Below are positions 7,997 through 31,256 of a stretch of DNA of 64,000 nucleotides, one piece after another; the first letter of the stretch is position 1, and each line of letters starts with the position of its first letter. The stretch spans positions 3,051,801 through 3,115,800 of the forward strand of contig OZ316891.1 of assembly GCA_973895155.1 (NCBI GenBank), read 5' to 3'. The notes under the pieces are model-generated. The model searched no databases and was not told the origin of the DNA. It was given only the letters and a program-made list of their open reading frames with translations. Source of the DNA: Marsupella aquatica. Its lineage: Eukaryota; Plantae; Marchantiophyta. A program made the translations under genes and the position numbers.

Positions 7997-8388
7997 ATGT
8001 CCTTTGGCAAAGTAAGGATCTCCATTACGGCTTGCATGAACCCAACTGACAATCTATTGGAACCTGCAAAAGCCGCCTTGGGACTGGGATCAGTTTTTGG
8101 GTAGCAAACACTCAACATCGATTTATGGCGGGCATCCTCAAAGGAAGTCATTGGAACATATCCTGTATGTTTCGGGACTTTTGCCGAGAATTCCACCTTG
8201 CAGAAGACATCCATAATGAGAGTAACTACCTGAATTGAAAACAAGAATATGTCAAAAATGGGTACTTTTGGTTAGCGAGCTCGCTAGCAAAAAGTGCACG
8301 CAAAATATTGTGGATATCTTACCTCAATGTCCATATCTGCCTGATACAAAGGAGATGGAAGATTCTAGACCTTTTTTGGGGCCCCAAT

Positions 8389-8676
8389 CTTGGGGGGTTA
8401 ACTAAGTGTATATTTTGGGGTACCACGTGCAATCCTAGCCTAATATAAATAGACCTATTTTATAAAGAAAATATTCCAAGAATATTATCTATTTTCAATA
8501 TTAATGACCTATTTTACTTTATAAAGGGTATATATTAAACAATATTCTATAAACATGAGTTTATAATACCTTCTTTTGCCTCCTACGCTTTTTAAAAATT
8601 TAGTTAAAATTTGTCAAAACTACCTATTTTGGATCGCACATGGTTTCTAAAATTTTTGATAGTCAACCCCCCCGAG
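8389..8676. mobile_element. 288-bp MITE, copy A (8-bp TSD, hAT-like)
   Basis: TIRs CTTGGGGGGTTAACTA / TAGTCAACCCCCCCGAG; flanks GCCCCAAT (8381-8388) and GCTCCAAT (8677-8684); AT-rich core; reverse-complement homolog at 30726..31013. Confidence 0.85.
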
Positions 8677-8924: not shown

Positions 8925-11900
8925 ATATTAGGGATTTGGTGGAGAGTTGGGAGCCACAAACTGGTCCTAAGCTGACAGGGGAGGAGAGACGTTGCATGCA
9001 TCGATTCCTGAAGAGTTACTAGAATTGTTTTGCATTTAGCATGAAGGATTTGGGGACATTAAAGGGCCCTGGTATTCAGATTGAATTGGCTAGTGATGCA
9101 CCAATCTTTCGTAGACCATACCGTTACAGTGACACGGAGAGAACTCTGATTCAAAGCAAAACTCAAGATTTGTTGGAGGCTGGATTGGTAGAGATTTCAT
9201 ATGGGGAGTATGCATCTGCCACAGTGATGCCAGCCAAGAAGGATGTGCATAGCAATTACACAGATAGGCGCATGTGTGGTGATTACAGACCTATTAATCG
9301 CCACACAAAATCTGATCGATATGCCATGCCTACACCTGAGGAGATCTTTGATGCTGTTGAGCATGCAAAGGTTTTCAGTTCATTGGATCTGAGGGCAGGG
9401 TACCATCAACTTCCAATTAGGCATGCTGACAGGTCCAAGAGAGCATTCTGGGGGATTGATTTTATGGCAAAGATCGTTTGTATCAGTGGTTGTTCTTACC
9501 ATTTGGGTTGAAGAATGCACCAGTTGAGTTCTAGAGATCATGGATCGAATCCTTGCAGGTTTGGATTTTGTCAGATGTTATATTGATGATATTTTGGTCT
9601 ATTCTTCTACTATGGAAGAACAGCAGCAGCACTTGCAGATTGTGTTGGAGAGATTGAGAGCACATGGGTTGAAGCTCCATCCTGGCAAGTGTAAGTTCTT
9701 CCAAGACAAGATTGAGTATTTGGGCCACACTATATACCCAGGGGGATTGGGTGTACAACAGACCAAAGTGAAGGCCATTACATAGATTCCTCGTCCTATT
9801 GATGTGAGCAGAGTTCGTGCATTCTTGGGATTGGCGAGCTACTACAGGAGGTATGTTAAAGGATTTAGCCTGCTTGCTAAACCTTTAACCATACTCACTA
9901 AGTTGGATCAGGAATGGACTTGGGGTGATGACCAAGAGCATGTCCTTCAGGAGTTGAAGCAAAGGTTGGCATCATCCCCTATTTTGAGAAGACCCATTTC
10001 AGGCAAACCATTTCAACTACACACTGATTGGAGTGGAGTAGGACTTGGAGCAGTGTTGACTCAGAAAGATGATGAAGGGCATGAGTTTGTTGTGGCATAT
10101 ACCAATAGATCAAACAATTCAACAGAAGCTAAGTATAGCTCTTATGAGGGAGAGTGTTTGGCAGCAGTGTGGGCTGTGGCACACTTCCGTTGTTACTTGT
10201 TTGGTAATCCTTTCACTTTGATCACTGATCATCAGCCTCTCAAGTGGTTAATGGAGTCTGACAAGCTCACTGGGAAGCTTGCAAGATGGGCATTGTTGTT
10301 GCAGGAATATGATTTCCAGGTTGTACATAGACCTGGAAAGGTGAACTTGGATGCAAATGGGTTGCCGCAATCCATGTACCAGTCAACAGGATGAGATTGG
10401 AGCCAGATGACATGATGAGTCAGATAAGGAGATGGTGCCAGGATGGCATGCATTTGCCTTTCTTTTTTGGGTGCCAGCATACAGTGGATCTGTGGACTCT
10501 ACCTCATTGGATGGAGTGGATGATGAGTCTTCATATATGGATGCTGGTGAGGTAACTTCTGGACAACAAGATATTCACAATGATGTGAGAGTGTTGGAAT
10601 ATTTGCGTAGTGGTTCTATTGTTGGCAGTGTTGATGCCAAAGAACGTGATAGGGTTCTACAGATAGCCAAGAGGTTTCGATGGGAGGGAAACCATCTTCT
10701 GAGAGTACTGCATGATGGTAGGGTGTTGGTGGTACCAAAATCATCACAACAAGTACATTTGGTGCGACATGCACACGAGGAGTTGGGTCACTTTGGTGTG
10801 AAGCGCACTTACGGCTTGCTGCATACACATTATTGGTGGTGTGCTATATACACTCATGTCCAGCAATTGATAGCTAGGTGTGTGGTATGTGATAAAGTGA
10901 GAGCATCATTTAATGCTGTCACTCCCCAATTGCACCCGTTGCCGATCATGGGTCTGGGATATCGTTGGAGTTTGGATTTTGCTAGTCCATTACCTTTTAC
11001 CCAACGTCATAATCGGTATGTTTTGGTCATGGTGGAGCAGTTCTCCAAGTGGATTGAGCTAGTGGCGTTGCCAGATAAAGCCAGTGGAGGAGTTGCTGCT
11101 ACATTTTTGGACCGAGTACTCAGTCATTTTGGAGCACCAGCTGAGGTGTAATTGATTAGGGAACTGAGTTCAGTGGAGAGTTTGAGAGTTTGTGTGAACA
11201 AGCTCTGATTGATCATCGTACTACCTCTCGTGATCATCTTGAGGCAGATGGGTTAGCTGAGAGAGTTGTGCAAACTGTGAAGAAAGGATTACGTAAGTAT
11301 GGCTTGCAGGTTGGTCATCTGGGAGATTGGGATCTCCAGCTACCTTGGTTAGCTATGGGCAATTGTTTCAGTCAGCAAGCATCACTTGCATCCTTCTCAC
11401 CTTACTTTTTGCTCTATGGTAGAGAGCCAGATTTGCTAGCAGCTATTCGTCGTGATGCTGCACCAGTTGTGAACTTGGATGATCCTGATGTTTGGGTCAA
11501 GGTGTGTTCAGAGAGAGCACGAGTATTTCACAGAGTGATGCCCATGGCTTTTGAAAACCTTGCCATTGCCCAACATTGTGATACTTTGAGGTATACCACT
11601 ATTCGTGGAGGAGGTTACCGTGCAAGCATTCAACAATTTCATCCTAGTGATTATGTTAATTTGCAGCAGATATCACCCACAATACTTGATGTGATCGCAG
11701 GCCGAAGAATCTTACATGTGCGTGAAGTGTTGCCTTCTGGTGTCTTGATGTTAGAGGGACGCGATGGTATGGTTTGGAAGGATCATGTGCGCAACTGTGC
11801 ACCATGTCACCTTCCCAACATTGATGGTACAATATATCCAAGCTTGGCACATGTTCGTGCTGGCTTAAAATGTATGTTGTGTGGATCTGCTCAGGGAGCA

Positions 11901-12011
11901 ACTACTATGTTGATTTGTGATAAGTGTTCAAGAGGATGGCACATGTCATGTTTGACACCACCATTGCAGGTGATTCCTTGTGGATCATGGCTGTGTCCTC
12001 AATGTTGGTGA
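8925..12011 (+). pseudogene. Ty3/Gypsy pol (RT, RNase H, integrase) with C-terminal PHD finger; frameshifted, 5'-truncated (no gag/protease seen)
   Basis: RT: RMCGDYRPIN, LDLRAGYHQ, YIDDILVYS, IEYLGH. RNase H: LHTDWSGVGLGAVLTQ, YSSYEGECLA, TDHQPL. Integrase: HHCC finger (HEELGHFG...CVVC), WSLDF, ADGLAER. PHD: CMLC..CDKC..WHMSCL..WLCPQC. Confidence 0.95.
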
Positions 12012-12654: not shown

Positions 12655-12958
12655 TGATGGGTTTTGGACATGTGTGGACATGAGTTCCACTTGTATTCCA
12701 TTCTCTTGTGTTTGTGATGTGGCAGTGTGACTATGTTTGGATGTATGTGACAAGCGATGTATGTTGTGTAGCGATGTGTATGCGCACGACAGTTGCCAGT
12801 TGATCGATGGCGCGCCCAGTATGCGCAATAGGATCCGAGTTGGAGGCCAAATGTTTAGGGACCAAATTTGGTCCAGGGTGGCAGGTCTCCAAAAGCATAT
12901 ATGAAGGGAGTGGTGTCTCCCTGGGGGCCAAGGGCGAGCCGAAGTCGTGAGCCGCGGC
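12655..12958 (+). repeat. Second LTR copy, left part (interrupted by the CACTA)
   Basis: Starts TGATGGG and matches 12186..12324; ends at the CACTA TSD GGC. Confidence 0.6.
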
Positions 12959-12989
12959 CACTAGTAGAAACCGGGGTAATTTAGACCAT

Positions 12990-13115
12990 ACCTTATAGGA
13001 CTATGCCCACTAAGTCCTTTTTCCATACTTAAAACGACTCGCACTGTTTGCCCCGGTTTTGTTGAAGACTAGAAAAGACTATGAGTGTTTTATGGTTCAC
13101 TAAAAGACTATGAGA
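12990..13115. repeat. CACTA left subterminal repeats (putative TnpA binding sites)
   Basis: Repeated (A)AAGACTATG / GGACTATG / ACGACTCGCA motifs. Confidence 0.6.
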
Positions 13116-16100
13116 AGTAACCTTGCTACTTTGTGAAGGGTGAATAGTCTGTGGGTTATCATGGACCATAATGTTCACTTATGTTGAGGAGGGGTAATTC
13201 TATAAAGAGGGTGATAGCAAGGGGCATAACTCATTAAATGGCCTTATTTGTGAGCAAAAAGGTTTTGGGTTTAATGAAGTGGGGTTCATGGAGGATGGAC
13301 TACGGAGGGATGGTCAATATATTTTTGGCCATTACTAAATCCATCTATAAAAGGCCAAGAAGCACAAAGGTAGATTTGTAACGGTCCTTTTTCATACATT
13401 AGAGCTCCCTATCATTCTTGCACCGGGAATATTGCTTTTTAGGACCGGATATAATGTTGGGCAACCTTAATCCTCATTACAGCACAATAAAATGCCAATA
13501 TCATACATGTATGTGCAAATATGACCATTCATTGCCTTCTTAGGGTTTAGGGTGTTTGCCTTGTTGGAGTCTACTAGTGTTTAGAGAACATATGCTTAAT
13601 TATGTGCTCAACTGCTGACCCCAATGGTAAGGGCTTCATAAATTCCTTCCCTAATTTTTTTTAAGGGCTTTCTCAACCCTTGGGCCGGACTAAGTACAAA
13701 CTACATGGGCAAGGCGCGGGAGAATGAGGCCGTAACTCGGTGGCCTAAACAAGGTGGTGGGGTCTTGGGTCGGGTGTTCGGGGTTTTTCCAAAGGGTTTT
13801 TCATTCGCAGTTGTGCTTTCTCTATCTCTCCAGGCGCCATGCTGCATCCCTAAGTGTATACACTCTTGCCATCCACGCATGGCCCCTTACCTTTTACTGC
13901 CATTGTTGAATGCAGGATCAACCCGGATATAGCACCTGTGTAGAGGCATTGGGTGAGCGTAGTGAATGCCATTTGTGGGCCGAACGTTCGTGAGTCGAGA
14001 GCTACAGATCGTCCTACAGAACGACTGGCAGTCGGAGCGGCGCAGGAGCTTAGAGTGGGCCAACGCCAGCTGAATACAAGCCAGGAGTTGTTCGATAGCA
14101 TAAGGTGAGAGTCCAAGTTTTGTGTTGCTTTAGTGTCCGAGCAGCGTGCTGCCATTTCAGCCATAGTGCACCGCCTTTGAAGCTCCCGTTGTTAGGGCTG
14201 GTAAGACATCACGGCTACATTGCTTTTCTTTGTTGTCCTCTGTCTTTTTGTGGGGACAACCTACTTGATTTGAGCTGCGCAAATCGCCATAAGTTAAGGC
14301 ATGCGTCATGCCATCTGGATAGTGTGCCACCAAACTATGGGAGGATGAGCAACGCGTGGCTGTAACCAGGTATTCTGTCAGCACTGGCGAGATTTCATTG
14401 CTAAAATCCTATTGCCTGCAATGTGTCTTGTAATGTGTTTTTCCTCATTCAATCAGGAGCTAAGAAGGGTATTGTTAGGCTTCAATTACTCTGTGTTTTT
14501 CTCCAGCTCCATGGTACAGTTTGTGCTTTGTCTGGCACCCATGCTCCGTCGATCGTAGAGCTAGGTCAACCGAGCTTTGAAGAGGGAGGCTGTGGGAGCT
14601 CCTTACTGTGCTGCAACTGCTCTTCAATCAACGGAGTAGAGATTGTAGCTACGATCAGTGTTTGCGGAGCTGCCAGCCGGGTGCTTCGATAGTAGAGAAG
14701 AGCAGCCACAGTGATTCAGTCCTTCTCCTACTTGCAACCAAGGACCCCCTGTGCATCATAACGTTGGACCTCGGAGCTGAGCTGCGCATTGTCTCTATTA
14801 CATGCCTTGTTCTCCCGTCCAATGTTTCCTGCGATTTTCTTTCTTCTAGAAGAGAATGGTGATTTCTTCTTCAATCAAACAAAACCCCACCCAACCACCA
14901 CCCAAGAACGTGGGGTGTGCGCTTCTTAATCCTCCTCAAACTGGCCCCAAGTCTGCTGAAACCCCATATATTACCCACCGGCACCAATGGTCCAGTCCCA
15001 ACCCGTCTTCCGCTTGCCACCCTCCTCACTCTCTCGCGCATCTATCTCCCGATATTTCACGCGCAGCCGAGCCCACCAAAAGCTCTCTCCCTACAATCCC
15101 TCCTAAATCAACTTTCTTGTTTCCTACTGCTGCTGATGTATGTTTGTTCTCCCCTATTTTTGTTTACTGATTGGTCTCTCCACACTTCTTGCTTGACATT
15201 ACTGTTTTGCTCCTCCCTGGATCCGAACATGCCTTGTGCCCCGTGCTCCAACCTGCATCCTTTTCTTTACTGAGGGGGGGACCACAGCCTCCAGCCATAC
15301 CTTGTGGCGGGCCTGGTCAAGACGGTGGTCAGCCGCTCATTTTTGCGCTTTTTGGATTTGTTTCCCAAGCTTCTGGGCAAGGGCATTACCATTCCGGATT
15401 CTCCCCGAGGCGCCACTAGCTTTTTTTCTCGGTTGCCCGTGTGCCTACCTTCTTAGTTTAGTTCTTATTTTCTCTCGGTAGGTTTTCATTCACCTGATTT
15501 GGACTTTTTGCTCCGGTGGAATCTGTCTTGACAACTTGTGGGAGTTCTAATTGTTTATATTGAGCATTACATTAGAGGAGAATTATGAGAAGCTCCTTTT
15601 GTAGCATCCACATGAATGCTGCTGGTGTGAATCCTGTGTCAAGTGCAGGGTTGGTGATGGCAATTTTGAATGGTTCCATTGCTCAGCCAGTGGTGTTGCT
15701 CAGTCACTGAGGCGGGGCAGGGGCCCACCTTTGTAAGGTACAAACTAACTCAGAATTTGAATGTAGTATTTGGCTTCAATTGGCTCCTTGGTTTTGCTGG
15801 CTTCACAATGTCTGCTCATAACATTTTTTGATGAACATAGGTATGGATAGAACATAGTAATTGGGAATTCGAATCACACTGTTGTCTGCTTTGTTGGAAT
15901 GTGTAACTGCATACACATTCCACCTGAGGGTCGCAAGCTGGAAACATTTGGAGGGGTTAGTTTTTTGCAGCTTAAACCTATCAGGATTTTGCGCTTGTGG
16001 TGACGCTATCCTTTCTGCCACTTCATGAGTTTGTTATGGACACTGTGTATCAAAGTTCTTCTCAGGAGGCGCTGAGTTTGACAGGTCCATGTAGCTGCGC

Positions 16101-17193
16101 CATACAGCTTAGACTGGTGTAAGCAACTCAAATCAGTTGCTTTAGGCCTGCAGGATCGCGACCTAGATTTGCAAGTTGATTCTCCATGTTCACAGAACTC
16201 AATTTTTCAACATTGCTTTTGCTTTGTTGCTGACTGTCCTTGCCCGTAAAAGTACTTATATTCTCTGAGCTGCGGTTGGTTTGCAAGTCCCTGTAAGGTA
16301 TCAATGTACCTTTCTCCTCATTTTTTCCGCCTCACTTCCCTCTAAACCTTCACTTCGAGAATTACCTGAAACAAATCACTGTCTTTCTTGTGTCTATGTA
16401 CGCAGTGTCTGAGTTTCATCGTAATCTGTTGCATACCAATCACTGCAAGCCATTGCCATTGCTATCTCTGTTACGTCTATGTTGCTATCTCCATCTTCAA
16501 GCTGTCTGTGCAACTCTCAGGTGAGCTCGTTCATTGATGATTCATCGATTCTATGTTTTGAGCTGGACTTGCGCTTTGTATTGCATTGCAAAGCTTTGAC
16601 TTTGAACTACGATTTCTCGTTCATAACTACGATGACCACTACATTGCCTTACTCTGTTCATTGCAGTAGCACAAATACTCAATTTCATTGACAGAGATAC
16701 TGAAATTGCCACCCACTTTGTTTCAGTGTGTTTGACTGCTCGCTCTTGCAACTTTGGAGGAGGGAGTCTACAGGCGGGAACTGACAACACGCATTGAAGG
16801 TAGTTGAAGTCACTTGGAGAAATCATTCTTCCATATACATAGTTTCAGATTTAAAAAATGCTCCTTCTCAGCAGCATGTATTGAGTAGTTTGCCTGTCAG
16901 TTGAGTTATTGCTTTCCCATTGACAAACCTAGCATGTGGAGGAATTGCTAATTGAGCTGTATATTGCTTTGCCAGCTGAGCTCCTTGTTGAGCTCCTTTG
17001 GCGCCTTGCTGTGGAGGTAAGCCAACGCTTCACCTCATCTCAACCTTGACCTTCATTTTTTACTGGTGAGAGACTGAGTTGCCTCAAAAGTTGTGAACGT
17101 TGAGTTGTGTTGCGGTTGATAGCCTACTTTAAAGATCACGTCAGTATAGTGTGGATAGTTAACGAAGGGTGTGTGCTGCATTTTGATCTGGAC

Positions 17194-17232
17194 AACCAAG
17201 TGTAGAGTTGACTCTTTCTGAATGTTGTAGTC
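17194..17232 (-). pseudogene. Captured ubiquitin fragment (antisense to the CACTA genes)
   Basis: Reverse complement reads GAC TAC AAC ATT CAG AAA GAG TCA ACT CTA CAC TTG GTT = DYNIQKESTLHLV, identical to ubiquitin residues 58-70. Confidence 0.8.
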
Positions 17233-17680
17233 TGTTTTGCCTTGAACTGGGCCGTGGATGAATTGAGCTCGTGAGCAGTTTTTTTCTTTCCCATCTTCCT
17301 GAAGCTTTGTCTGCTTTCTGCCACCTCAGTGGAGGTTCACTTGCACAACACGACAACCAATGAGTTTTCTCTTTGCTGCAACCTGCAAGGTGAGACTTTC
17401 AATCTTTCTGGATGAAAAAACAGGATCCAAATATGATTTATGTACATGTCCATGGAGAACATGGTTTTATATACATGCTCTTTGTCTTAGGAACTCAACA
17501 TCAAATATGTACTATGCACTTTTCATGCTATGTGTATACTGTGACCTGTAGTTGGAACCAATTTAGTGAGTGGGAACTGATAAGTGCAGGTTGGTTGCTG
17601 TGGGCAAGGCAAGTCGACCTCCTGCTCGCCTTGCTCATCAAAGGACGTGAACAGAGGACATCACAACAAAAGCAACACTT

Positions 17681-18130
17681 ATGGTGAGGACCCGCAACGC
17701 TAAACATGTGCGGCTTGCACGCAAGGCAGAGATGTTGCGCCTTGAGTATGTCAGACTGGGGATCCTTCCAGTCCAGTCTGCATGGTACTTTGAGTACCCT
17801 ATTCTTTCCAGGAACAACTACAGCCGGCCACTACCTGCTTCAGTACCCTTCCCGACATCCTTGGTATTTGTGTCTCTTGTACATGACCCACCACAAATTA
17901 GGTGCCAAGGGTGTGTGCACAGTTGCCAATATGACTGTCCTGCCTGTAGGGCTTCTGGCCCAGAGTTGGATGACCGTTCTCTTGGATGTCCGTTTTTGCA
18001 TAGAGCACAATGTATCATCTGGAACCACTCGCCATCCTGCAGTGTGCCTGGCGATGTCACTTGTCCTGCCCTCCCAGACCCCACCACCAGTGACTTTGGT
18101 GTCTACACATGTTTGGATCACACGCTCTAG
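17681..18130 (+). CDS. CACTA cargo ORF1: 149-aa basic N-terminus and Cys/His-rich putative zinc-binding protein
   Basis: ATG-initiated and uninterrupted; CQGC..CQYDCPAC..GCPFLH..C..YTCLDH; same strand as neighbouring cargo. Confidence 0.5.
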   Translation: MVRTRNAKHVRLARKAEMLRLEYVRLGILPVQSAWYFEYPILSRNNYSRPLPASVPFPTSLVFVSLVHDPPQIRCQGCVHSCQYDCPACRASGPELDDRSLGCPFLHRAQCIIWNHSPSCSVPGDVTCPALPDPTTSDFGVYTCLDHTL

Positions 18131-18773
18131 AGGACCGCTTGTCACACCGCATGCACAGACCAGAGACCATTGACCTATAACTTAACACTCTGACTTGAAC
18201 AGAGAGGATATTTACTAAAAAATTTGAATTATGAGCAATTTTGGGTCCAGGGTTTAGGGTCAACAGTACATAACTTATCCTATTATGGCTGCACTAAGTA
18301 GAATATCCTAATTTAAGATGCTAGCAAGCTCACTTAAAAGTCTCCTTTCAAAGACTGGAATTAATGGGCCATGTGATAACCTGGAAAAAGTGATTTATGC
18401 CTAACTTATTTGCCTCATTCACTATCATAGCCTATTTAGGATGTATAAATTACAACCCTGATCACACTGCTTGATACCAATCCTGTTCAAAAAATGCCTG
18501 TTTTACATGTGACGACTATTGTATGTGATTCAAATGCATTAAATCTTGTTGCAGATCTCCTTTGGTGAATCATAGCCACAAAATTGAGGTGTAGGTGGAG
18601 CTATTGTACTAGGGGATCAGTTTTCAGTGTGGGCTCAACAAACGATAAAGTATGTCTACTCTGCATCTCTATGTGATCATTTCATTGCAGTAGCAATTGC
18701 CACTCTAGTCTATATGCTACACTGTACTTTTTGTACACTGCTAAACTGTATTGTATCTGTCTCATGCGTAGGC

Positions 18774-19454
18774 ATGGCACGCCCTAAAATCCGAGCCAAG
18801 AAGCGGGGGACAGAGGTGAGCAACACAGGTGTAGTTGGGCCAGATGGTAGTAACTTCTCCGCAAGTCAAATTTTCTAGAAGGCAGCTCATTGTTGTGCCA
18901 TTTGTGACGATGGTGGGGGCTTAGCCATATGTGAGGGCCCTTGCATGAGGCATTTCCACCTCAACCCAGAGTCTGACCTTGCTACAGAAAACAACTGTCC
19001 AGGGGTGGGCCTCCCGTCAGCACACTAGGGAGGCTGGATGTGCACTGATTGTTTGGAGAAGCAGGCTAAGTGTAATCAGTGTGGGAAGTTGGGGTCTTAT
19101 GAGGGCTCTGTTGATGCTCCACCACTTGTTAGGAAATGCCCTGACAGATATTGTGTGAGGTTCTTTTGTTTTTCATGTTTGCCCGATCTTGCCACAGCTT
19201 GCCCACTTCATAAGTGCAAGGCATGTGGTCAGCACGATGAAGATTTCTGGGTGGACATAGTCCACTGTGTTAGGTGTCCCACCATGTGGCACTTTCATTG
19301 TTTGAAGGAGCGTCAAGCAGAAGGCTATGCTTGTGACAGACACATCTATCATCACTCTGCACATGGTGTTGATCGATGGATCTTCTATTGTCATCGCCAT
19401 GCCATAGATCCTACTTTGCACACTCCTATGAGAGATCACATTTCTTGGCTTTGA
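18774..19454 (+). pseudogene. CACTA cargo ORF2: stand-alone EDM2-type composite triple PHD finger (226 codons, two in-frame TAG)
   Basis: One frame from ATG 18774: CAICDDGG..CEGPCMRHFH..WMCTDC..CNQCGKLGS..CPLHKCKAC..CVRCPTMWHFHCL..RWIFYCHRHAIDPTLHTPMRDHISW. TAGs at 18876 and 19026. Splice acceptor just before the ATG. Confidence 0.88.
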
Positions 19455-20016
19455 ACCTAAGTAATGTACATGCATAGTGCACCTGATGTGGATACCTTGG
19501 AGATTGCAGACATTCCAATTTTGAGAAGAAGGACCTCTGTAGGAGAGGATGCTTAGGCAACAATTACCCTAAGTTCATTACTTGTTCCTGGGTACATGCC
19601 TTCAAAAACTCCCCTACAGCCCTCTAGGAACTTTTTTAACTCTGCAATCATTTTGATCACGACTTACACGACACTACTTAAATTAAATCAGGACTTCTCA
19701 TTATCAGCATATAAGTTACAAGGCTATTTAATTTGCGAGAATTCCCTTAAAGTGTACCAACATTTTGTATTCTCATTGAATGTCTGCCCATTTACAACAT
19801 CTGTATGTGGCATCACAAAACAATTGCACTTGTCACCTTCAATATTGTAAAGGCACATATTCAAACTATGAGGTGCATCCTTGCAGGTGTCTAGTACGTT
19901 TGAACCAATATTTCTACCATTTGGAATCGGAGCAGAGACTCACCAGACGACTGGACTGGATTATCAGGTGAACGCATTATCTTCCGGTCTGTAGTGATTA
20001 GGTGGGGTGTGTGTAC

Positions 20017-20865
20017 ATGGCCTCTAGGAAACGTACAAAGGTTGACCACCCGCCTCTGTTGGCTGGAATCAAAGCCATTTTGATTCCTGGCCACTATGGG
20101 TTCACCCAAGTGAGTTGGCCAATCGTACAAAAACGATTCTCAGAGTTCCATGGGACTGAAGTCAAGGACATCACTCCACAGACTACACATGTTGTTGCGG
20201 GGACATGGTTGGATGTGATGAACAAGTGGTCATGGTCCTTCATTGATTCTGCCATTACCAACCAAGGTCTAAAAGTGGTTGAAGTCTCTTGGCTGACTGA
20301 TTCTGTTAAACATAGGTGTGTACAGAGTACTGAGCAATATGAGTTGTGGAAGAGTGAGGAGGCCACTGTAGAGGCTTTGGCTGAAAAGGAAGCCTATGAA
20401 GCAGCGGCAGAGAAACCCAACTTTGCTTCTGTCGAATATGGACCTGTTGTCAACATAGGACACCATCCTATGCGTGCAGATGCTATATTGAATGAGCATG
20501 GCAAGGAGAGAAATACCATTATGAAGGGGTTCAGTGTGGTATTTGCAGAAGAGGGAATTGGGGAGACTAAGTGCAGACTGTACAAGTCCATAGTTGTTGA
20601 GCTAGGTGGGACAGTGGAGGAGAGTCTAACAGAAACCTCCACTCATGTTGTAGGTCTGTCATACATGAAAATATGCAGAAAATTCTTTAAGACAACAGTG
20701 CGTCATTTTGTCATGAACAACAATCTTTGGGTGCTTTCCCCTGATTGGCTTCTGGAATCAGCAGCGAGAGGGAAACGACAGAATGCTTGGGACTTTGATA
20801 TTTTTGAGGCCTGGCCCTCCAAGCTTCAGCGAAGATGTATGCTTACCAATGGTGGGAGAAAGTGA
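20017..20865 (+). CDS. CACTA cargo ORF3: intact 282-aa tandem BRCT-domain protein (DNA polymerase lambda-like BRCT)
   Basis: Two repeats carry THVV and W-L-x-[DE]-S motifs (TTHVVAG..VEVSWLTDSV; LGGTVEESLTETSTHVVG..VLSPDWLLESA); N-terminal NLS-like RKRTK. Confidence 0.85.
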   Translation: MASRKRTKVDHPPLLAGIKAILIPGHYGFTQVSWPIVQKRFSEFHGTEVKDITPQTTHVVAGTWLDVMNKWSWSFIDSAITNQGLKVVEVSWLTDSVKHRCVQSTEQYELWKSEEATVEALAEKEAYEAAAEKPNFASVEYGPVVNIGHHPMRADAILNEHGKERNTIMKGFSVVFAEEGIGETKCRLYKSIVVELGGTVEESLTETSTHVVGLSYMKICRKFFKTTVRHFVMNNNLWVLSPDWLLESAARGKRQNAWDFDIFEAWPSKLQRRCMLTNGGRK

Positions 20866-21041
20866 GGAGTAGGAGTCCCTCATATTTTTGTATAAATCAC
20901 AATTTTGTAATAAATGTGATCCCTGAACTAACTCATCTTGTCATGGTTGGTCGCAGTTGAAGTGATTGTTGTTTCCTGCTGTGTGGGGTGTGACTGTGAA
21001 TCTACTTGCTGGGCTCTGTTTGGCTGAAAACTTTGGTGGGT

Positions 21042-21488
21042 ATGTTGTCTCTTCCAGACCGACAGGCCCTATGTAGGGTCCTCCTACGGGTTGCATCATG
21101 CATGGCTACTGCTTGGGCTTACTTGTGTGGATTGGTAACCAGACAGAGTGTAGCTCCATCCGAGATAATGCCTGCAGACCTTGGATGTGTTGTGAATGTT
21201 GTGGTGAATGAGGATGCACAGTCCGAAGAGGACATTTACTTTTCAGCAGATGAGTTAGACAAGCACGATGCTGTAGGTGGTTCCTTGTTGCCTAATTTGG
21301 CAGATGATATAGTTCTTACACATGTCTGGCCGAGGGTTCTTGTGGTGTCTGGCGCACAAGATATCTGCAAATATAGACTAATTAGTACCCAGTGGAGGGA
21401 CTTGGTAGCAACATGTGCACCATGGAGGGCACTGCTGCCACTGCTTGTAGGCACGGATCGGAGACCACCATGGCATGAGAAGGTTTAG
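21042..21488 (+). CDS. CACTA cargo ORF4: F-box domain protein (C-terminus possibly frameshifted)
   Basis: SLLPNLADDIVLTHVWPRV...ICKYRLISTQWRDLV matches the plant F-box consensus LP.LP.D...I..R.....R.V...W..L. Confidence 0.72.
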   Translation: MLSLPDRQALCRVLLRVASCMATAWAYLCGLVTRQSVAPSEIMPADLGCVVNVVVNEDAQSEEDIYFSADELDKHDAVGGSLLPNLADDIVLTHVWPRVLVVSGAQDICKYRLISTQWRDLVATCAPWRALLPLLVGTDRRPPWHEKV

Positions 21489-21905
21489 ACCTTGATGACT
21501 TAATGTACATGCCTGAGTACCTCAGGGCTAAGTGGCATCGACAACAGGATTGGTATCCGTATTTGATGTGGTAGTAAGATGAGGACATCTCACACCGGTC
21601 TCGCACCTGGCACCTGTGTCTATGACTATACATGATTGGACTCTAATATGGTCATGGATGTACGTGCAGAGGCAGTACATGTGAGGACAGCGGAGGAGTT
21701 GACACCCTCAAACATTTAGGAATTTTGTCTCATTCACTTGAGAATAGGTACATGACTCAGGCACCTATATTTTTTGTTTTTTTGTTTTTTTGAAACGTTA
21801 TGCTACGTATTTTGGCAAGTACAGTCGGGGGTGAAATCCTTAACAGGAAGTGTATTTTTCACTTGCATAATAAAATGATAGGGTGCTGAGTGCGTGTGTA
21901 TAGTG

Positions 21906-24900
21906 ATGGCTCCAAGGTTGCCTCTTCGCAACCCATTTAGGATTAGGCATCATGATTCTAAATTGTGGATGTGTGAACAAGCCCGGGCCGCCCAAGGTAG
22001 GAGTAGGAGGATGAGATGCCATGCACACAGTGCCAAGGATTCAAGTCGTTGAGTTTGAACACTGTGCACCTTCACCTGCTGCGGCATGAAAGGCACCCTC
22101 GGTGGAGGGTTTGGAATGTACCAGCAGAAGAAGACTCCTCTGATGAAGAGTGGAGAGCTGACTTTGTGGATTCTAATACAGCTAGGCGTAGAGACTACGT
22201 AGAGCAGGACATAGACTGTGTAGAGGATGGTCCTAGGGTCCAACATGAGAACGTGGATGACCAAGATGGAGATGCAGAGGCAGTCACTGAGGACGGTGGG
22301 ATGGATATCCCAAGAATGGTTCAAGAGATTTTTTTGAAGACCTTGATGCTTTTTACGACACAGTGGAATCAAAAGAGGACAATGAACCGCAACCACACAT
22401 TGGAGACGGCCAAGCTGAACCTGACTTTGACATTGGGGAAGGTGCAGTAGAGAGGGAGTGGGTGTTTGGGGGCCCAAAACACATCAAAGAAGCTTGCATT
22501 CCCATCTACGAGGGGTCGAACTGCTCCAAGCTGGGTTTTGTCGTGTTGTTGTTGAACATCTGTGGCAATCACAATGTTCCCAATATATTTGTGACAGAGT
22601 TGTTGACCTTCCTGCGCCGAAATGTGTTACCAGATGGTAATTCAATTCCAAAAAATATGTACGAGGCTAGGAAATTGATGTCTAACCTTGGGCTGAACTA
22701 TGTGTCTATTGACGCATGCCCTGATGGGTGTGTTCTCTTTCGCAAAGAGCATGCAGATAAATTGACATGCCCTCATTGTGGTAAGCACAGGTACAAGAAT
22801 GTAGGGAAATGTACACACCCTGCCAAGGTTCTTCGTCATTTTCCTCTCATTCCTAGACTACAACGTCTGTTTAGATGCCCTACCATTTCCAAGCTGATGA
22901 CATGGACTCCTGATAACAAGAGCAGTGATGGCCTACAGCGTCACATTGGAGATTCCAACCATTGGAAATTTGTTGATGAGAGGTGGCCACAGTTTGCTGT
23001 AGAGAAGTGGAACTTTCGATTTGGTCTATCACTGGATGGAGTAAACCCATTTGGAGACAAAAACAACCGTTATTCATGTTGGCCGGTTACGCTGCTAAAT
23101 TACAACCTTCCCCCATGGATGACTACAAAGAGGTTTTTTGTCATGATGGTGCTGTTAATCCCTGGACCAGCTTCTGTGACCGAGCAATTCATAGATATCA
23201 TGTTGGCTCCAGCAGTGGAAGAGTGGAAGACTTTGTGGATAGAAGGGGTGTTAACCCATGATGTTCTGAAGGGGCTTCTTCGACCCAGCCCCTTTAGACT
23301 GCATGCAATTTGTTTGCTGGATATAGCAGATTACCCAGGCCATGGCATCATATCTGGACGAGTGACAAAGGGCTATGTGGGGTGCACACCATGTGGGAAA
23401 AATGTGACAAGTGAGTGGTCGCATGCCCTGCACAGTATGAAATTTCAGGGGCATAGAAGGTATCTGCCTGCTGATCATCCTTACAGGCACACACGGTCTC
23501 AAATTGCACACTTCAACAACAAAACAGAGCTTCGTGGCCCACCACAGAGGGTCACCAAAGAGCAAGTCCTGAGGTGGGCAGCCAGGAAGGCTGATTGGGA
23601 CAAGATAAGTGCCACTGATTGAGAACCTGAGGATCCAGTGGTGAAACACGGTGTGAAAAGACAGACCTTGATGGACTTGGAGTTGGAGTACTGGAGGGTA
23701 ATGTACTTAGCCTCCAGCCCCTGTATGATTGCAATTTTAGATTGGAGCAATGGTGGATTGATGTTGGTTACAATCCTCCTATGTGGTTAATTAGTGTTTC
23801 TGTTGTTGAATTCTTTGCTTTGTGGAGTGCAGGAATTCGAGCCCAGCAAACACAATGTGGACGTCATGCACATTGAGAAAAATATTTGTGAGAGCTTGCT
23901 GAAGTTCTTGTCGGGTGAGAAAGATATAGGAGCAATTTGAGCTGATATGCAACAGAAGAGGATTCGCCCTCACCTTTGGTTGAAGCCCCATGCAAGCAAT
24001 CCCAATGTACTTCTCAAGTTCCAAGCTCCCTATGTGTGCACACAGGAAGAATGGAAGACATTCTTGTATAGATTGAGCTGTCTGAAAGTGCCCTCTGGCT
24101 ATGCTGGTGCCTTCAAGAAGCATATTACAAAGAATAAACTTGGCAGTATGAAAACACATGACTACCATGTGTTGATGCAGCACATTATGCCCCTATGCCT
24201 TAGAGGTCTCATGCAGAAACCAGTCTGTAATGTCATTCTTTGACTGTGCAATGTATTTCGCCGTATATGTGTGAAAGTGTGGGATCCCCAAGGATTGGAG
24301 CAGTTGAAGCAGGATGCTGCTTATGTCCTCTATGACTTGGAGATATACTTCCCCCCTGCTTTCTTTGATGTTATGAGTCATCTCCTAATCCATGTGGTAG
24401 AAGAGCTAGGGCAGTATGGGCCAGTCAGTACCAGATGGATGTACCCTATGGAGCGATACATGAAGTTGTTGAAAGGTCATGTGAGAACATACTACAGGCC
24501 AGAGGCTTCCATGGCATTGGGGTACATTAAGGATGAGACGTTGGGGTTCCTAACAGAGTACATGGCTAGGTCTGGTGAAGCTATGACAAGAGTTTGGAAA
24601 TCTGGTGAAGATGATGGAGTGAGTGGCGAGGTTGTTGAAGGTGTGGGACGTGCTGTTCAGCTGCCTGTTGTGATTCAAGACAAGGCTCATTCATATGTGC
24701 TGGCAAACACAGAGCCTATGCAACCATGGTGGAGGTGAGTGATTGAATTGACTTGCCTTTGTTGTGATGCTTCTTGTCTGTTCCAAGGGTGATCTTAGGT
24801 TGTCATGTGTTGTTTAGACCTAACTATGCCTGTACCTCATATTGCAGGGAATATGATATGCAAAAAGCTGCACACTCTGGGCAGCAGGATCCCTTCCCAC

Positions 24901-25607
24901 AGTTCGAGCAGTGGATTCGGGTGACAATTCGAGAGCATAGTAGACATCACCCAGATATGGAGAAGGATTTGTATCTTCTATCTGTGCCACCACGATTGTC
25001 TATTCTGACCTACAAACGGATGAGAGCTTATGGAAATCATTATCGAGTGAGGGATGAGCAGGGTGACCATTGTGTATCATATGATTGTGGTTTGATTTCT
25101 GTGTTTGAGCAGAGAACCTCTGAAGAACAGAGGGGGTGGATGAAGATGGGTTACGTGGGGGAGTTGACCGACATTTGGGTGTTGAATTATGGTAACACAA
25201 GTGTCCCAGTGATATTGATGAAGGGATCATGGGTGAAATCAGAGTGGCAAAGACCAAGGGCCACCATGAAGCGTGATCATGATGGGTTCTTGTTGGCCAA
25301 TTTTAGGTCCAGAGTACCAGAATGGTCTGAGCCTTTTGTTTTCCCTAGCCAAGTTGAACAGGCTTTCTTTGCAGATGTGGAGGAGTCACATGGCTGGAGG
25401 GTGGTATGCCATAGCCAAGCACGGAACAGGCAGATGGATGGAAGTAAAGTAGAGTTCAGTTTGGATGACCATGCTGCATTCGAGCATCCTAGTCACGAGA
25501 CTGTACTTCCAACTCGGGCAGGGACTGACTACATCCCCTTAACATTGAGAGAGACATATGATGAACCTGGGCAAATGGAATATGATGAGGTTGATGATTT
25601 GCAATAG
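21906..25607 (+). pseudogene. tnpD: CACTA TnpD-like transposase (transposase-associated Zn domain, Transposase_21, DUF4218, DUF4216); 3 exons; disrupted
   Basis: Motifs CPC..C..V..HL, IDACPDGCVLF, VLRHFPLIPRLQRLF, GLSLDGVNPF, YSCWPV..YNLPPW, HNVDVMHIEKN, MKTHDYHVLMQ, FFDVMSHLLIH, GPVSTRWMYPMER, EPFVFPSQVEQAFF. Introns 23698..23832 and 24735..24847. Frameshifts near 22020 and 22335; TGA stops at 23620, 23938 and 24241. Confidence 0.95.
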
Positions 25608-25784
25608 GCAACAGCTGGCGATTGGCAAGTATGAGGTTGAGGATGACTACCTGCACAGAGTCACAGAACGAGAATTGCTGCCTGGAATGATGTTTAGGAT
25701 AGTTGGATATGCATGAAATTGATTGATACTTTGAAGTTAGTGTGCTGATTCTCCCTGTTTGGTTGTGGGTGCTGTGCAGAAGCT

Positions 25785-28700
25785 ATGGGGGAAGAGGGTG
25801 ATGACATGGAGACAGACATGGGGCTTGGAGAGTGGGGTGAAGAGGAAAGATTGGATATGGATGGAGACCCAGATGCAGGGGGCTCACAGAAAAATGCATC
25901 TATGCAGGATGCACAGGGCCCCCATCAAGTCCCAGGTAGGTGGGCAGCTAGAGAGAAATCACATAATCCATACCCTAGAAGGAGCCAGAGTTATTGGTAA
26001 GGGACGCCTGATAATTATGATGATGACTATGATGGAGCAGAAGATGGATGGGATGAATATGAACACCTAGAGCGTGGTAGAGACGGGTACAGAGGGCAAT
26101 GGAAAGGTGAGGAGGATGATTGAACAAGTAAGTGCCTTGTGCTAGTGATTTTGTGATGGTAGTAGAGATTTAGCTCAATATGGACTTATCTGATGTGTAG
26201 CTAGGGCAAAGAGTTTATCTTACAGGTCCATGAGTGTGGCATGTACCTGTTGGTATGCAGACTCTGATTGGGACAATCACAAAAACAACAAAGGCCATCC
26301 ACGTTCAGATAGGAGGCAATCATTCATAGGCGGGAGAAACGACCCTAATTCATCAAGACAAAGCAATAGGACAGGTGGTCCAGAACCATCTATGTGCCAA
26401 GGGAGAGGTAACTTGGTCATTGCATAATTGCTCTGAAGTCCAGTGTATATTTGGCAGCAGGATTTATGATTCATACTTACCTAATGGATCCTATAAATGT
26501 GCAGGGACTCCAGGGAGGTTTGGACAATGCAATCCAGGCCGTGGGGGGACACCAGGCCGTGGAGGGACACCTAGTAGCGCTTCAGGGAGTACCAAGGCAG
26601 GAGATAGTAACAAATTTGGTAAAGTAGAAGTGAATTCCGATGGTTGGATAACTCCCACATGTGATGGTAAGAACCGTTGGCATGCTGACCTAAGAGGAGA
26701 AGTATTGCGTTGGTTAGATTTGAGCATTACAGAGTTTAGGAGTCAGAACAAAGCTGATTGGGCTGCTATCTGCAAGGACATTCTTGAACGGTGGGACTAT
26801 GTTGGTAATGATGGTAAGGGCCCAGTTGAAGATTGCATATCAGATTATGCAATGAGGATTTTGAAACAATAGAGGCATAGGTTGAAAAGGATGTGGATAG
26901 ACAATGGTTCTAACAGGAGAATGCCACCACCCCCATCATTGGAATTGGATCAATGGACACGGTTAATCAAAGGGTTCATGTCGGAGACTGGGCAGAGCAA
27001 GAGTGAACTGATGTCAAATGCTCGAGGCAAAGTGAAACACCTGTCACAGGCTGGGAGAGGAAGTTATGCTCCAGTGAAAGAACAATTGGTAAGGCAGTGA
27101 CATGCCTGATAGTAAGCCTCAAACTTATCATCTTGCTACCATTATTACATTTTCATTGACAATCAACACTTGGTTTCATTCATATGTATGTTGATGTGGA
27201 CTGTAGAAGAAATTGGCAGGTGAAGAACCATCAGCACAAGAAGTGAGAGAGGAGTTCATGAAACAAAGGAGTGAGGTGACAAGTGTGACTTCCAAACAGG
27301 TGATTATATTGTAATTCTGTATGTTCTATGACTATTTGGCCTTGAGCATCAGAAAGAATTGTAGTAGGAAGTAAGCAACCAGTTCTTGGGGACAATTATC
27401 TGAGATATGTAAGCTGTGTTATGACAAGGAACTGTTACAACTCTCACAGAGATGTGTGAACGGTTGAAGTCATTAGAGTGTGGACTCCCTCGAGTGGAAA
27501 GTAAATTGGCTGATCGTTTGGATATTGTGGAGGCATCTGTAGCGAACCTTCTTGCATCAGTGGAATCTAATTTCAAGCTTGTGATTGAAAAATTGGGTGG
27601 TTCCCAACCAAACAATGAGGGCAACATTGTACAAAGTGTGCCCTTGTTAACAAAAAAGGGAATTGGCAAATCTGACACAGGTATGGAAATGACACCGGCT
27701 CATTGTTCATTGTGTCCTATGTTCAAATGTTAGAAGTAAGTTTTCATGAATTGAGTGAATGGTTTGAATGCAGGAAGAGTGGAGGTAGAGGACCCTGTAA
27801 TCAGTAAGCAAAATGGAAAAAAGGTTGTTGAGACAGGTAACCTGCTATGATCCAGTACATTACATTTGAAAAGTGCATGGAGTTTTGTGAAGCTTAAGCC
27901 GGTTGGAGGTAATCTTTTCTGTAAGAACTGGTTGGATCAACTGGGATCTGAAGTGACATCATGATTGATGTATCAGGTGATTCAAAGAGCAATGAAAAAG
28001 ATGTGCCCAGTGCCTCAGTGACCATAGCCAAGGAGGTATCAGGTAAGCTGATACTTTAGATTCCTCTCCTACCATTGTTGAGAAACAATTCAGTGGTTAA
28101 TAGATTGAACCTGAATATTGTGGTGTGTTTATTGATCAGCAGAAGCAGACATGGAGGATATGGCAATGGCAAAGAAGGGGAAGAAGGCTATTCATAATGG
28201 TAAGGAGATAGTGACAACTTTGTGGTTGGTGACATGTACATGGCGCACATGTGATGAGTGATTCACTTATGTTGGACAATACACTGAATTGTAGTTGATG
28301 CAGAGTTGACAGACTCTCAACCAAGTGGGAGCAGGGTGAAGCGACGTCAAAACTTGGGAGCAACATTGGATGCAAGTAAGATTGTAGATGCTTCAATTGA
28401 AGCAAGTACAATGTTGGCAGATACTGAGATGATGTCGCAGGGAAATCCTGCTACACAATCGGAAGTGTCAAATATGGATGCAGATTCTTTGAAGAAGAGT
28501 GTAGCCAATTCTCGATCACCAGCACAAAACACTCGTGCCAAAGTCATGACTCGCAACCAAGGTATGAATAATGTCATGTATAAGCCACCCAGGAAAGCCA
28601 AGAAAAATAGCCAGGGTAAGGTGGAGGTGATAGCCACAGCAGAGCCAGTCCATAATCTTCTATCATGGGAGGATGACTCACAGGTATGTGTGGGTACAGG

Positions 28701-28896
28701 CATTTTGCGACCGGATCATGCTAAATTCCATGGCAAAGTGGTCCCGGATGACCATGTAGTAGTGTTGTTGAATACAATGATTGTATCTGATTGTAATTTG
28801 CCATTTCCGAATAGAGACGATGATCCACCTCAAGAAATAATTGCAGATGCAGTAGGATCTCTTGTGCTCCGGCCATTAGAGTGTGTTAGTCTGTAG
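25785..28896 (+). pseudogene. tnpA: CACTA TnpA-like multi-exon gene (Ptta/En/Spm Transposase_24-like central domain, TNP1/En/Spm C-terminal domain)
   Basis: PPSLELDQWTRLI..KSELMSNARGKVKHLSQAGRGSY; C-terminal VGTG..FHGKVVPDDHVVV..LPFP..IADAVGSLVLRP; ~10 GT-AG introns; TAG at 26870. Confidence 0.8.
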
Positions 28897-29389
28897 TGAC
28901 TGAATACAAGTGTAGTTAGAATCAAGTGAATTGTGTCACATTTTGACATTGCCTTGGAAAGATCCAAGAAATATCTGTACCAATTTTTCCATTTGGTAAA
29001 GAGGATGAAGGAGTGTGTGACATTGATATTTCTGAATTCTGTATGTATGAAACAAGTGATTGATGTCAAACTATGGCTCTATGATAATTGTCTATGATAC
29101 TTGAATCTGTTTTGTATCATTTGAGTATTAGTGTGTATGGTATAGAGAAATACTTTGTGACCTTCTTTGTAGTCTATGATGTTTGAATCTGTGAATTCAT
29201 ATTAGTGTACATGGTATAGAAGATGGCTTTCTGAAACTCTGAGTTCTAATGTTAACATGATGAATGGTGAGCTTATAGAGTGAGTTCATTCCAAGTACAC
29301 AATAAAACATAATTGGAATGTGTTATTTGTGCACAAGAGTGAGTTCATTCCAAGTAGTATAGTGGGGTTTTCATCACTCATATCCAGTT

Positions 29390-29714
29390 GACATGAAAGA
29401 CTTATACATACCCCACAAAGTGTTTACTTTAGTCATTTTATAAACCCACAAAGTATATTTAAAGACTACCCTTCTAGTCGTTCCCAACGACTCACCATCG
29501 CAGCCTATAAAAGACTACAAATGACTCACCAAACCTACCCACACAAAGACTACAATAGTCTAAAAATCCAGTCTATTAAACGACTTACAAACCAGTTCTA
29601 TAAAGGACTCAGTTGATTATAGTAACAAAACATACGACTCGCAGTCCTATAAAGGACTGGAGTCTTTCCCAGTCATTTCCAAGTCCTATACGGTACTGAA
29701 TAGTCATTTAATGG
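29390..29714. repeat. CACTA right subterminal repeats
   Basis: Multiple AAAGACTAC, CTATAAAGGACT and ACGACTC motifs in both orientations. Confidence 0.7.
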
Positions 29715-29747
29715 GGTCTAAATACCCCCCGGTTTCTACTAGTGGGC

Positions 29748-30308
29748 GGTCATGACAGAAAGGGAAAGCGCCAAACGGAAACAATGATATCTTCCCAACG
29801 GGAAGTCCGTTGGAGGACTTCTTGGGTGCGTTGGAAATCTCTCAAGGCCAAGTAGGCGTGGAGGTTGGGTTCTTGGGTGCATGTCCTGGGGTCAGGGTGA
29901 TCACTTAGTGATGGATAGGTACAAGGGGGTATCCGGGCCGCGCTCAAGGAAGGAGTTGTTCTTGACGAACAGTGGGCATGGGTTCTGGTTCCGGCTTATG
30001 GCATCGAGAGGACCTATCGCTGACCTATTTACCAATGTCTGTTGAGCTTGAGTTAGGATGCTAGACTTGGCAAGTTCTAGATCTTGAAGGGTTACTTACC
30101 GAGGTGCTTGGTTGCTTGTGCAAGCAGTGAGGACCGTTGAGTAGCGGTCGTGTTGGTGAGCAAGTGCAGCTTCGTATGGGAGGGGCCGTGGGTTGGTGCA
30201 AGGGGCACTAGGTTGCTTACTTGAGGTAATCCGTGGAGGCATTCAAGCACTAGGAGCACTTAGGCGTGGGTGCTGAGCTTGGTGAGGGGGCTGGGTGGCA
30301 AGGTCCAC
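29748..30308 (+). repeat. Second LTR copy, right part (resumes after the CACTA)
   Basis: GC-rich non-coding sequence continuing after the TSD; exact 3' end uncertain, abuts Harbinger ORF1. Confidence 0.45.
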
Positions 30309-30309
30309 C

Positions 30310-31256
30310 CCTAAAGGACTGCCCTAGGTGGACCAATCCAACCAACGATATGGCAAAGGGGAATGGCAAAAAAATGGTAGCAGCAAAAGGTGAGGAGAAA
30401 GATAAGGACAGCTCAAGCCCAACTCCAGAGGTTCTTGAGACATCAGACAATGACATTGCAACACAAGCAGTTGATGACTATGAATCAGGATTAGCAAGCA
30501 GGAAGAGACCTATAGGAAATTGGAGGGCAAAGGAAGAGTTAAAGCGAATGAAGCACCAAGAAGATGCTCTGAAGATGACAACGTTGGCTCAGAAAGAGAT
30601 TGCCACTGCCAATGTGCAACGTGCTGGAGTAGCTGAAAACAATTCCAGTATGGCATTGCTTTCATTACCTACAAATAACATGACACCACAGTTGCAAGCT
30701 TTCATGGAGGAATGGAAGCTGGAAACTCGGGGGGTTGACTATCAAAAATCTTAGGAACCACGTGCGATCCAAAATAGGTATTTTTGATAGAAATTAACTA
30801 AATTTTTAAAAAACGTAGGAGGCAAAAGAAGGTATTATAAACTCATGTTTATAGAATATTCTCTAATATATAATTTTTATAAAATAAAATAGGGTTATTA
30901 ATATTGAAAATGGAGAATATTCTTGGAATATTTTATTTATAAAATAGGTCTATTTATATTAGGCTAGGATCACACGTGGTACCCCAAAATATACACTTAG
31001 TTAACCCCCCAAGGCTGGAAATTGCCATCAATTTGAAGCAACAAATGCAGCAGCATATAGATGTCCAGCCAATTCCTCCAGTGACACACAATCCACTGCC
31101 AAGCGTCCGACAGCCGGTATTCCCAATGCCACACCTCCAAATGTTGTTCAGGAACCAGAGGAGTCTGAGGATGAAGGGGACAAAGCAATTGAAGTTCCAG
31201 TCGGGGAACAGCCAATGAACCAAGATGCTTTTATGGCAATGCTTGAGCAGACATAA
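30310..31256 (+). pseudogene. PIF/Harbinger ORF1 (Myb/SANT partner protein) C-terminal half, NAM-associated-type region, MITE-interrupted
   Basis: LKDCPRW and RPIGNWRAKE motifs typical of PIF ORF1; the reading frame continues across the MITE. Confidence 0.75.
30726..31013. mobile_element. 288-bp MITE, copy B (8-bp TSD)
   Basis: TIRs CTCGGGGGGTTGACTA / TAGTTAACCCCCCAAG; perfect TSD GCTGGAAA at 30718-30725 and 31014-31021. Confidence 0.92.

Follow-up and report, generated by a model that had tools for sequence, protein, structure and literature searches.

A CACTA transposon of the liverwort Marsupella aquatica carries an uninterrupted twin-BRCT gene with a DNA polymerase lambda-like second repeat

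Background

Cut-and-paste transposons need the repair machinery of their host twice, at the break that excision leaves and at the gaps of the landing site, and both their gain in copies and the survival of the break are usually seen as a matter for the host alone. With CACTA (En-Spm) elements and Pack-CACTA cargo, the element described below shares its CACTA termini, a target duplication of 3 bp, TnpD- and TnpA-like genes that follow each other head to tail, and additional internal sequence. Several DNA transposons carry extra ORFs that are thought to act on host pathways, for example the VANB and VANC genes of VANDAL elements and the TET/JBP genes of fungal EnSpm and other elements, all of which act, or are proposed to act, on silencing (PMC6446971, PMC12730594; papers are cited here, by PMC number, for portions of their text).

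The BRCT domain of DNA polymerase lambda (Pol lambda) is a docking domain of DNA repair. When Pol lambda is recruited through Ku in human cells, R57 and L60 matter more than any other position, and gap filling is reduced by Pol lambda without catalytic activity, an effect that depends on R57 (PMC12056208). Arabidopsis Pol lambda consists, at its N-terminal end, of a nuclear signal followed by one BRCT domain, through which it binds LIG4 and XRCC4 (PMC4444747). Two BRCT domains in one chain are found in BRCA1, MDC1 and plant BCP3/4, and tandems that bind phosphopeptides have a motif in which S/T-G stands in the first loop and T/S-x-K precedes helix 2 (PMC10386641).

Here we describe a CACTA element that carries a twin-BRCT gene as one of four extra ORFs, all on the same strand and 5' of TnpD, a set that distinguishes it from CACTA elements with TnpD and TnpA and from Pack-CACTA cargo. 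This ORF is not a piece of host sequence taken up recently but a complete gene of two domains, which has its own deep family. It appears comparable to the accessory genes of other DNA transposons, set in a standard CACTA frame; whereas VANB/VANC and TET/JBP are connected with silencing, its product is a DNA-repair docking domain. We found no published description of a CACTA-borne BRCT gene (Repbase, subscription journals and most supplements were outside the search) and, in the literature searched, no account of a cut-and-paste element in eukaryotes that brings along a gene for controlling how its host repairs breaks. Three papers on transposon products and capture (PMC13547354, PMC13317346, PMC6446971) contain no mention of BRCT.

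Results and discussion

A complete CACTA element surrounds the BRCT ORF

The features on which the analysis rests are given below, in coordinates of the window (the whole stretch of M. aquatica DNA that was analysed, 64,000 nucleotides).

12956-12958, no strand: target-site duplication, left copy, same letters as 29745-29747, at the empty-site joint
12959-12976, + strand: left terminal inverted repeat, beginning CACTA, 18 bp complementary to 29727-29744
17681-18130, + strand: ORF A, 149 aa, open here, with a basic N-terminus and a Cys-rich C-terminal half, in a well-covered part of the element
18774-19454, + strand: ORF B, 226 codons, NSD-type PHD finger cluster, premature TAG at 18876 and 19026
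20017-20865, + strand: ORF C, twin-BRCT gene, 282 aa, with a basic N-terminus (possible nuclear signal), no catalytic domain and no intron needed
20050-20349, + strand: BRCT repeat 1 (residues ~12-111), with the family-specific W64, W71 and W73
20350-20511, + strand: linker, with helix 114-132 (T117 and E123 conserved) and then a low-confidence, fast-changing stretch
20512-20808, + strand: BRCT repeat 2 (residues ~166-264), Pol lambda-like, K185/L188/Y189 aligning with R57/L60/F61
21168-21580 (limits approximate), + strand: ORF D, weakly F-box-like (F-box E 0.064, under the cut-off), frameshifted near 21481
22016-25607, + strand: TnpD-type transposase (Transposase_21 E 1.3e-58, DUF4218 E 3.2e-26, DUF4216 E 1.8e-5)
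26330-28896 (limits approximate), + strand: TnpA-like gene pieces (Transposase_24 E 0.003, under the cut-off), at least one premature stop, at 26870
29727-29744, - strand: right terminal inverted repeat, complementary to the left repeat
29745-29747, no strand: target-site duplication, right copy, matching 12956-12958

The element is a complete CACTA of 16,786 bp (12959-29744); its terminal inverted repeats are perfectly complementary over their 18 bp, and the 3-bp duplication stands on both sides. Contigs of three of four public sequencing runs contain the empty site, joining 12955 to 29745 in such a way that the three letters fit either side. Because of the inverted ends, the flanking duplication and the empty-site joints, we place the BRCT ORF inside a single CACTA element. 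Together with the TnpD- and TnpA-like genes, these features bear out the claim of an earlier note on this DNA that the ORF lies within a cut-and-paste transposon. TnpD is broken in this copy by a frameshift near 22329 and by stops at 23620, 23938 and 24241, so the copy does not have the unbroken transposase of an autonomous element and is unable to move itself.

The neighbours of the BRCT gene are in varying states. ORF A matches no Pfam family under E 0.3. The matches of ORF B to PHDvar_NSD (E 3.8e-5) and to PHD-1st_NSD (E 6.6e-4) fall short of the curated Pfam cut-off. The ORF is a candidate anti-silencing gene, and we take it to resemble the PHD fingers of EDM2, a plant protein that reads heterochromatin marks. 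At ORF D, other copies have a one-letter insertion at 21481 relative to the sequence here. A captured plant BRCA1/BARD1 gene, which would combine PHD and tandem BRCT, was considered as a common source of ORFs B and C and rejected: ORF B starts and stops independently and is of NSD type, not of the extended PHD family, and the BRCT relatives stand alone. By eye, a splice-acceptor-like AG lies just 5' of the start codons of both ORF B and the BRCT ORF (18770-18776 and 19995-20019); the accessory ORFs may be spliced from a common leader.

In the 5' 4.3 kb of the element (12959-17300) there is no long ORF, contigs give lower cover, and deletion joints are numerous (14746 to 16730 and 17261 to 17565 are two of them); on these grounds we regard this part as varying between copies. 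Summed contig depth is lower over 13277-17315 than over 17316-29744, depth not being a copy number.

The CACTA element sits just 3' of the part of an LTR retrotransposon that codes for protein, apparently within the LTR. This host retrotransposon (9023-12011, + strand) encodes an integrase with a terminal PHD finger (PF00628, E 1.5e-9). Two 290-bp stretches, 8384-8672 and 30729-31018, are 91% complementary, lie 22 kb apart and flank the retrotransposon together with the CACTA element; they may represent one small element that is present twice, in opposite orientations. A Harbinger-type element is represented by pieces at 30254-33834 (NAM-associated E 7.9e-11, Plant_tran E 5.2e-35). Judged by its plant transposon families and by gene pieces that look like those of a host, the window is DNA of a land plant.

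ORF C encodes two BRCT domains and nothing else recognizable

ORF C runs without a stop from the ATG at 20017 to the TGA at 20863-20865, while the remaining two forward frames hold 16 and 20 stops across the same interval; from base composition, about 1e-4 stop-free frames of this 849-nt size are expected in the whole element. Pfam recognizes BRCT in two stretches of the protein (E 1.5e-13; 51.2 bits, the cut-off being 21.3) and no other domain type. The 8-kDa and polymerase domains of Pol lambda are absent by the same search, the ORF stopping 18 residues past repeat 2. AlphaFold2, run on a 16-row alignment, predicts two BRCT folds (mean pLDDT 82, pTM 0.50), a helix at residues 114-132 after repeat 1 and a linker whose residues 135-162 have pLDDT below 50. 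The protein thus shows the marks of the BRCT superfamily: a profile score above the cut-off, the fold, and the conserved G, TH and W. All of this agrees with the earlier note, which had described an uninterrupted 282-aa ORF with two BRCT repeats and no catalytic domain, and had placed the repeats close to the limits found here. Several relatives (see below) end in an acidic tail, which the window protein does not have; no frameshift is listed in other copies over the corresponding stretch, 20810-20865. A predicted complex of the BRCT protein with the TnpD core scored 0.46, the same as the control (0.46), and speaks neither for nor against an interaction.

The resemblance to BRCA1 and MDC1 extends to the presence of two BRCT domains in one chain and to scores of 27-32 bits for BRCA1 repeat 1 against our family profiles. 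In contrast to proteins of this type, ORF C is missing the phosphoserine pocket: BRCA1 S1655 and T1700 correspond to E179 and F223 of repeat 2, and repeat 1 has P-G and T-W-L at the motif positions. Its linker of ~55 residues with low pLDDT, the low pTM and the rmsd values of 12-20 on tandem chains also hint at a departure from packed tandem BRCT domains, although packing may escape a model built on 16 rows.

An unnamed family of twin-BRCT proteins with a probable internal duplication

We searched for relatives in two ways. A word-indexed search returned one (P0002, 61% identical), and a full scan of 1.84 billion representatives returned 17 matches at E<=0.001, 16 of which are single or twin repeats of the same kind as in the window protein, the other being a multi-BRCT amoebal protein at the threshold. 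Counting cluster members, nine full-length proteins are available (264-321 aa, 16-59% identical to the window protein); none contains another domain type above the cut-off, and the eight other full-length relatives are likewise without Pol X domains. The relatives form clusters of one to three members on contigs of 0.6-13 kb and are annotated as unnamed, hypothetical or BRCT domain. A near-length profile search recovered only P0002 and P0012, and 7,521 candidates included no longer fused relative, which is weak evidence. Loci of the distant relatives were not found in metagenome contigs, viral contigs or prokaryote genomes. Likewise, the 1.84 billion representatives contained no close host donor. 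The earlier note had named as a refutation high-identity grouping of the repeats with an unrelated host tandem-BRCT gene; in the family searches and the repeat comparison, no such grouping with a known host tandem-BRCT protein appeared. By its sequence, ORF C is a member of a divergent, unnamed family of stand-alone twin-BRCT proteins.

Within this family the most constant residues are W64, W71 and W73 in repeat 1 and Y216, C220 and R229 in repeat 2, and the net charge of the repeats ranges from -11 to +8. Structure libraries added little: the ESM Atlas gave only generic BRCT clusters (0.84-0.90), and a viral fold library gave no match under E 0.3. Single relatives searched against the PDB gave E 1.1 (P0029), REV1 first (P0013) and spurious UVR8 repeats (P0011).

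Repeats 1 and 2 are 23% identical over 71 residues (E 2e-6), and their profiles align to each other over 100 columns with an hhalign probability of 98.8. Ten repeat-2 domains score 35-56 bits against the repeat-1 profile (a range that leaves out the second repeat of P0023, which is repeat-1-like at 77 bits), as compared with 26.7 bits for the best solved single domain, so no solved BRCT is as near to the repeats as they are to each other. One starred branch of a 25-row tree holds 10 of the 11 repeat-2 rows, the exception being P0023, which has long branches. Both repeats of P0023 are of the repeat-1 type, a pattern that suggests either that duplication happened twice or that one repeat was converted. 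The simplest and most likely reading of these comparisons is that a single BRCT domain was duplicated internally, once and long ago, and this speaks against the idea that a host tandem, for instance that of BRCA1, BCP4 or LIG4, was captured.

Repeat 2 resembles Pol lambda's BRCT domain in profile but not in fold rank

The earlier note had likened repeat 2 to the Pol lambda BRCT, and this likeness holds for the sequence profile of repeat 2. With a repeat-2 profile built from four sequences, the human Pol lambda BRCT is the best single-domain match in the PDB (33.2 bits, E 3.5e-7), aligning over ~90 residues, or nearly the whole domain, with one 2-residue gap; the runners-up are BRCA1 domain 1 (28.2 bits) and REV1 (27.6 bits), which leaves Pol lambda a margin of ~5 bits. 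Rtt107 stands above Pol lambda only as the sum of three stretches, the best of which scores 19.4. Two whole-protein profiles score 33.1 and 33.5 bits against the one-domain chain 2jw5. The Ku-related positions R57, L60 and F61 of Pol lambda (structures 2jw5 and 9g9l; the 2jw5 chain starts at residue 30) align with K185, L188 and Y189 of repeat 2. The short basic N-terminus of ORF C recalls the nuclear signal that precedes the BRCT of Arabidopsis Pol lambda (PMC4444747, PMC10787897).

The likeness does not extend to the rest of the protein or to other methods. Unlike Pol lambda, ORF C has two repeats, is not followed by 8-kDa and polymerase domains and is a single ORF in a transposon. In comparison with the human enzyme, R96 and S116 are not kept in repeat 2 (they align with F224 and L246), and repeat 1 is without the motif, having S, I and V at the positions of R57, L60 and F61. 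The repeat-1 profile ranks PARP4 first (26.7 bits), then REV1 (24.5 bits), with Pol lambda at 15.5 bits, and a mixed-repeat profile places REV1 first among single domains (37.5 bits, as compared with 29.2 bits for Pol lambda). A structure search gave Z scores of 16.1 for PARP4, 14.5 for XRCC1 and 10.4 for Pol lambda, at ranks 28-29, and Foldseek with repeat 2 alone put Pol lambda at rank 32, with no match under E 0.001. Among the 24 scorable repeats (one of 25 rows was too short), R or K occurs at the R57 position in nine, a hydrophobic residue at the L60 position in 12, and both in four. We presume that the N-terminus of plant Pol lambda is nearer to this twin-BRCT family than the human one is. 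On balance we lean slightly toward descent of the twin-BRCT gene from a Pol lambda-type BRCT.

ORF C stays in frame in other copies of the element

We compared contigs from public sequencing runs, of which 11, from seven studies, were listed; nine contain some of the stretch, and contigs of five were compared. No RNA run was listed among the 11, which does not bear on expression. In four runs the 911-bp BRCT stretch is matched by 590, 177, 96 and 28 contigs, with likeness from below 90% to above 99%, and the share of these contigs that runs into unlike sequence is 0, 0.01, 0.03 and 0.09. All 30 bins of the element are covered in three of the four runs; among the contigs listed, no single contig links the BRCT ORF to the transposase in another copy.

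The earlier note had allowed that the ORF might be absent or degenerate in other copies; instead it is present and in frame in them, with no stop codon among the best-supported 40 of 134 variants. These 40 comprise 13 synonymous and 27 replacement changes, a ratio of ~0.72 over the whole ORF that is not different from neutral (p 0.2). Three indel rows in the ORF are net in frame, and two deletion joints fall within it, each in single low-depth contigs. Over the two BRCT domains we counted 11 synonymous and 14 replacement variants, with 26% synonymous expected (ratio ~0.45, one-sided p 0.04), whereas the linker and tail hold 2 and 13 (the linker alone 1 and 9); the contrast between domains and linker/tail has a Fisher p of 0.08 in the same best 40 of 134 variants, for a division chosen after the data were seen. 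Given eight breaks in ~5.6 kb of the other annotated coding sequence of the element, an 849-nt ORF would escape damage with a chance of ~0.3, and for this reason the intactness of ORF C in this copy is weak evidence when taken alone.

Possible roles of the twin-BRCT protein

The reading that we favour, tentatively and with somewhat less than even confidence, is that ORF C is a maintained CACTA accessory gene, probably from a duplicated Pol lambda-type BRCT, whose product would serve at excision breaks as a decoy bound to Ku. The element would express a nuclear, enzyme-less twin-BRCT protein; repeat 2, judging from the aligned residues, would occupy the polymerase X site on the Ku70/80 bridge, and host Pol lambda would be kept off the excision break. 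The ends at the donor site might then be joined more slowly and copying from the sister chromatid favoured, which would restore the element and raise its copy number, sister-chromatid repair after excision being a known route to transposon copy gain. Repeat 1 may bind a second partner through its own conserved tryptophan patch. A more far-reaching version, in which a plant CACTA lineage has an old host-manipulating kit composed of a Pol lambda-derived twin-BRCT decoy that blocks end joining at excision breaks and so lets the sister chromatid serve to restore the element, a triple-PHD histone reader and an F-box-like protein, strikes us as possible, if doubtful.

Alternatively, the product of a maintained accessory gene might use the patch that is conserved in its own family to bind not Ku but DNA ends, poly-ADP-ribose or a chromatin protein. 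It would then be a tether, or would work with the adjacent PHD and F-box-like genes against silencing, and we give this a real if minor share of the likelihood. The residues best kept in the family (the three tryptophans, Y216, C220 and R229) are not those of the Ku-binding helix, the best fold match is the PARP4 BRCT (Z 16.1, rmsd 2.2, 96 residues aligned), which has been called nucleic acid-binding (PMC12212138), a PHD cluster and an F-box-like ORF are present in the same element, and accessory transposon proteins are predicted to contact many host proteins and to evolve fast (PMC13547354). However, net charges between -11 and +8 give no hint of a nucleic-acid surface common to the repeats, fold rank separates BRCT subfamilies poorly, and the repeat-2 profile favours Pol lambda over PARP4 by ~14 bits. 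The protein could also mimic the ligase IV tail and compete for XRCC4. The best whole-model Foldseek match is the 255-residue chain f of the NHEJ complex 9cq3 (E 1.2e-10), and as chain F of 9cq3 is ligase IV, we read chain f as the tail of that enzyme; ligase IV is a known tandem BRCT with a long linker (PMC10386641), and a helix after repeat 1 is conserved in the twin-BRCT family. That match reflects spacing only (TM-score 0.28, rmsd 22), however, the best stretches of the profile alignments each take in a single repeat of human ligase IV (20-29 bits), Pfam shows no match to a ligase IV linker family, and the repeats are nearer to each other than to ligase IV, all of which makes mimicry of this kind very improbable.

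Two further explanations dispense with a role for the element. The gene could come from an undescribed host twin-BRCT family, one member of which was picked up by the CACTA element and serves the host or nothing; we hold this to be unlikely. CACTA elements do capture host sequence (PMC13317346), and the failure to recover any neighbourhood for the distant relatives in metagenome contigs, viral contigs and prokaryote genomes is compatible with a host family, yet their occurrence as very divergent, continuous ORFs in such small clusters fits mobile cargo better, and the 21 Arabidopsis BRCT proteins, as described in the portion cited of PMC11014961, include no small protein with two long-linked repeats. 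It is likewise quite unlikely that ORF C is inert cargo, a captured and drifting fragment that is open here by luck. The ~0.3 chance of escaping damage, the whole-ORF variant ratio not significantly below 1, the broken state of ORF B, ORF D and the transposase, and the two deletion joints seen inside the ORF in single low-depth contigs are in keeping with such a fragment; against it, the nine full-length members keep both folds and the invariant core residues at 16-59% identity, the best 40 of 134 variants include neither stop nor frameshift, and no close host donor occurs among the 1.84 billion representatives.

Conclusions

A transposon-borne BRCT protein would make it a testable question whether a cut-and-paste element takes a hand in the repair of its own breaks, because the gene is small, K185 and L188 are defined positions for mutation, Ku70/80, XRCC4 and LIG4 are defined candidate partners, and excision footprints and end-joining reporters provide simple read-outs. 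If the protein does dampen end joining, it could be a natural tool with which to shift genome editing in plants toward templated repair. Even without a role in repair, it represents an unnamed BRCT family with a conserved surface.
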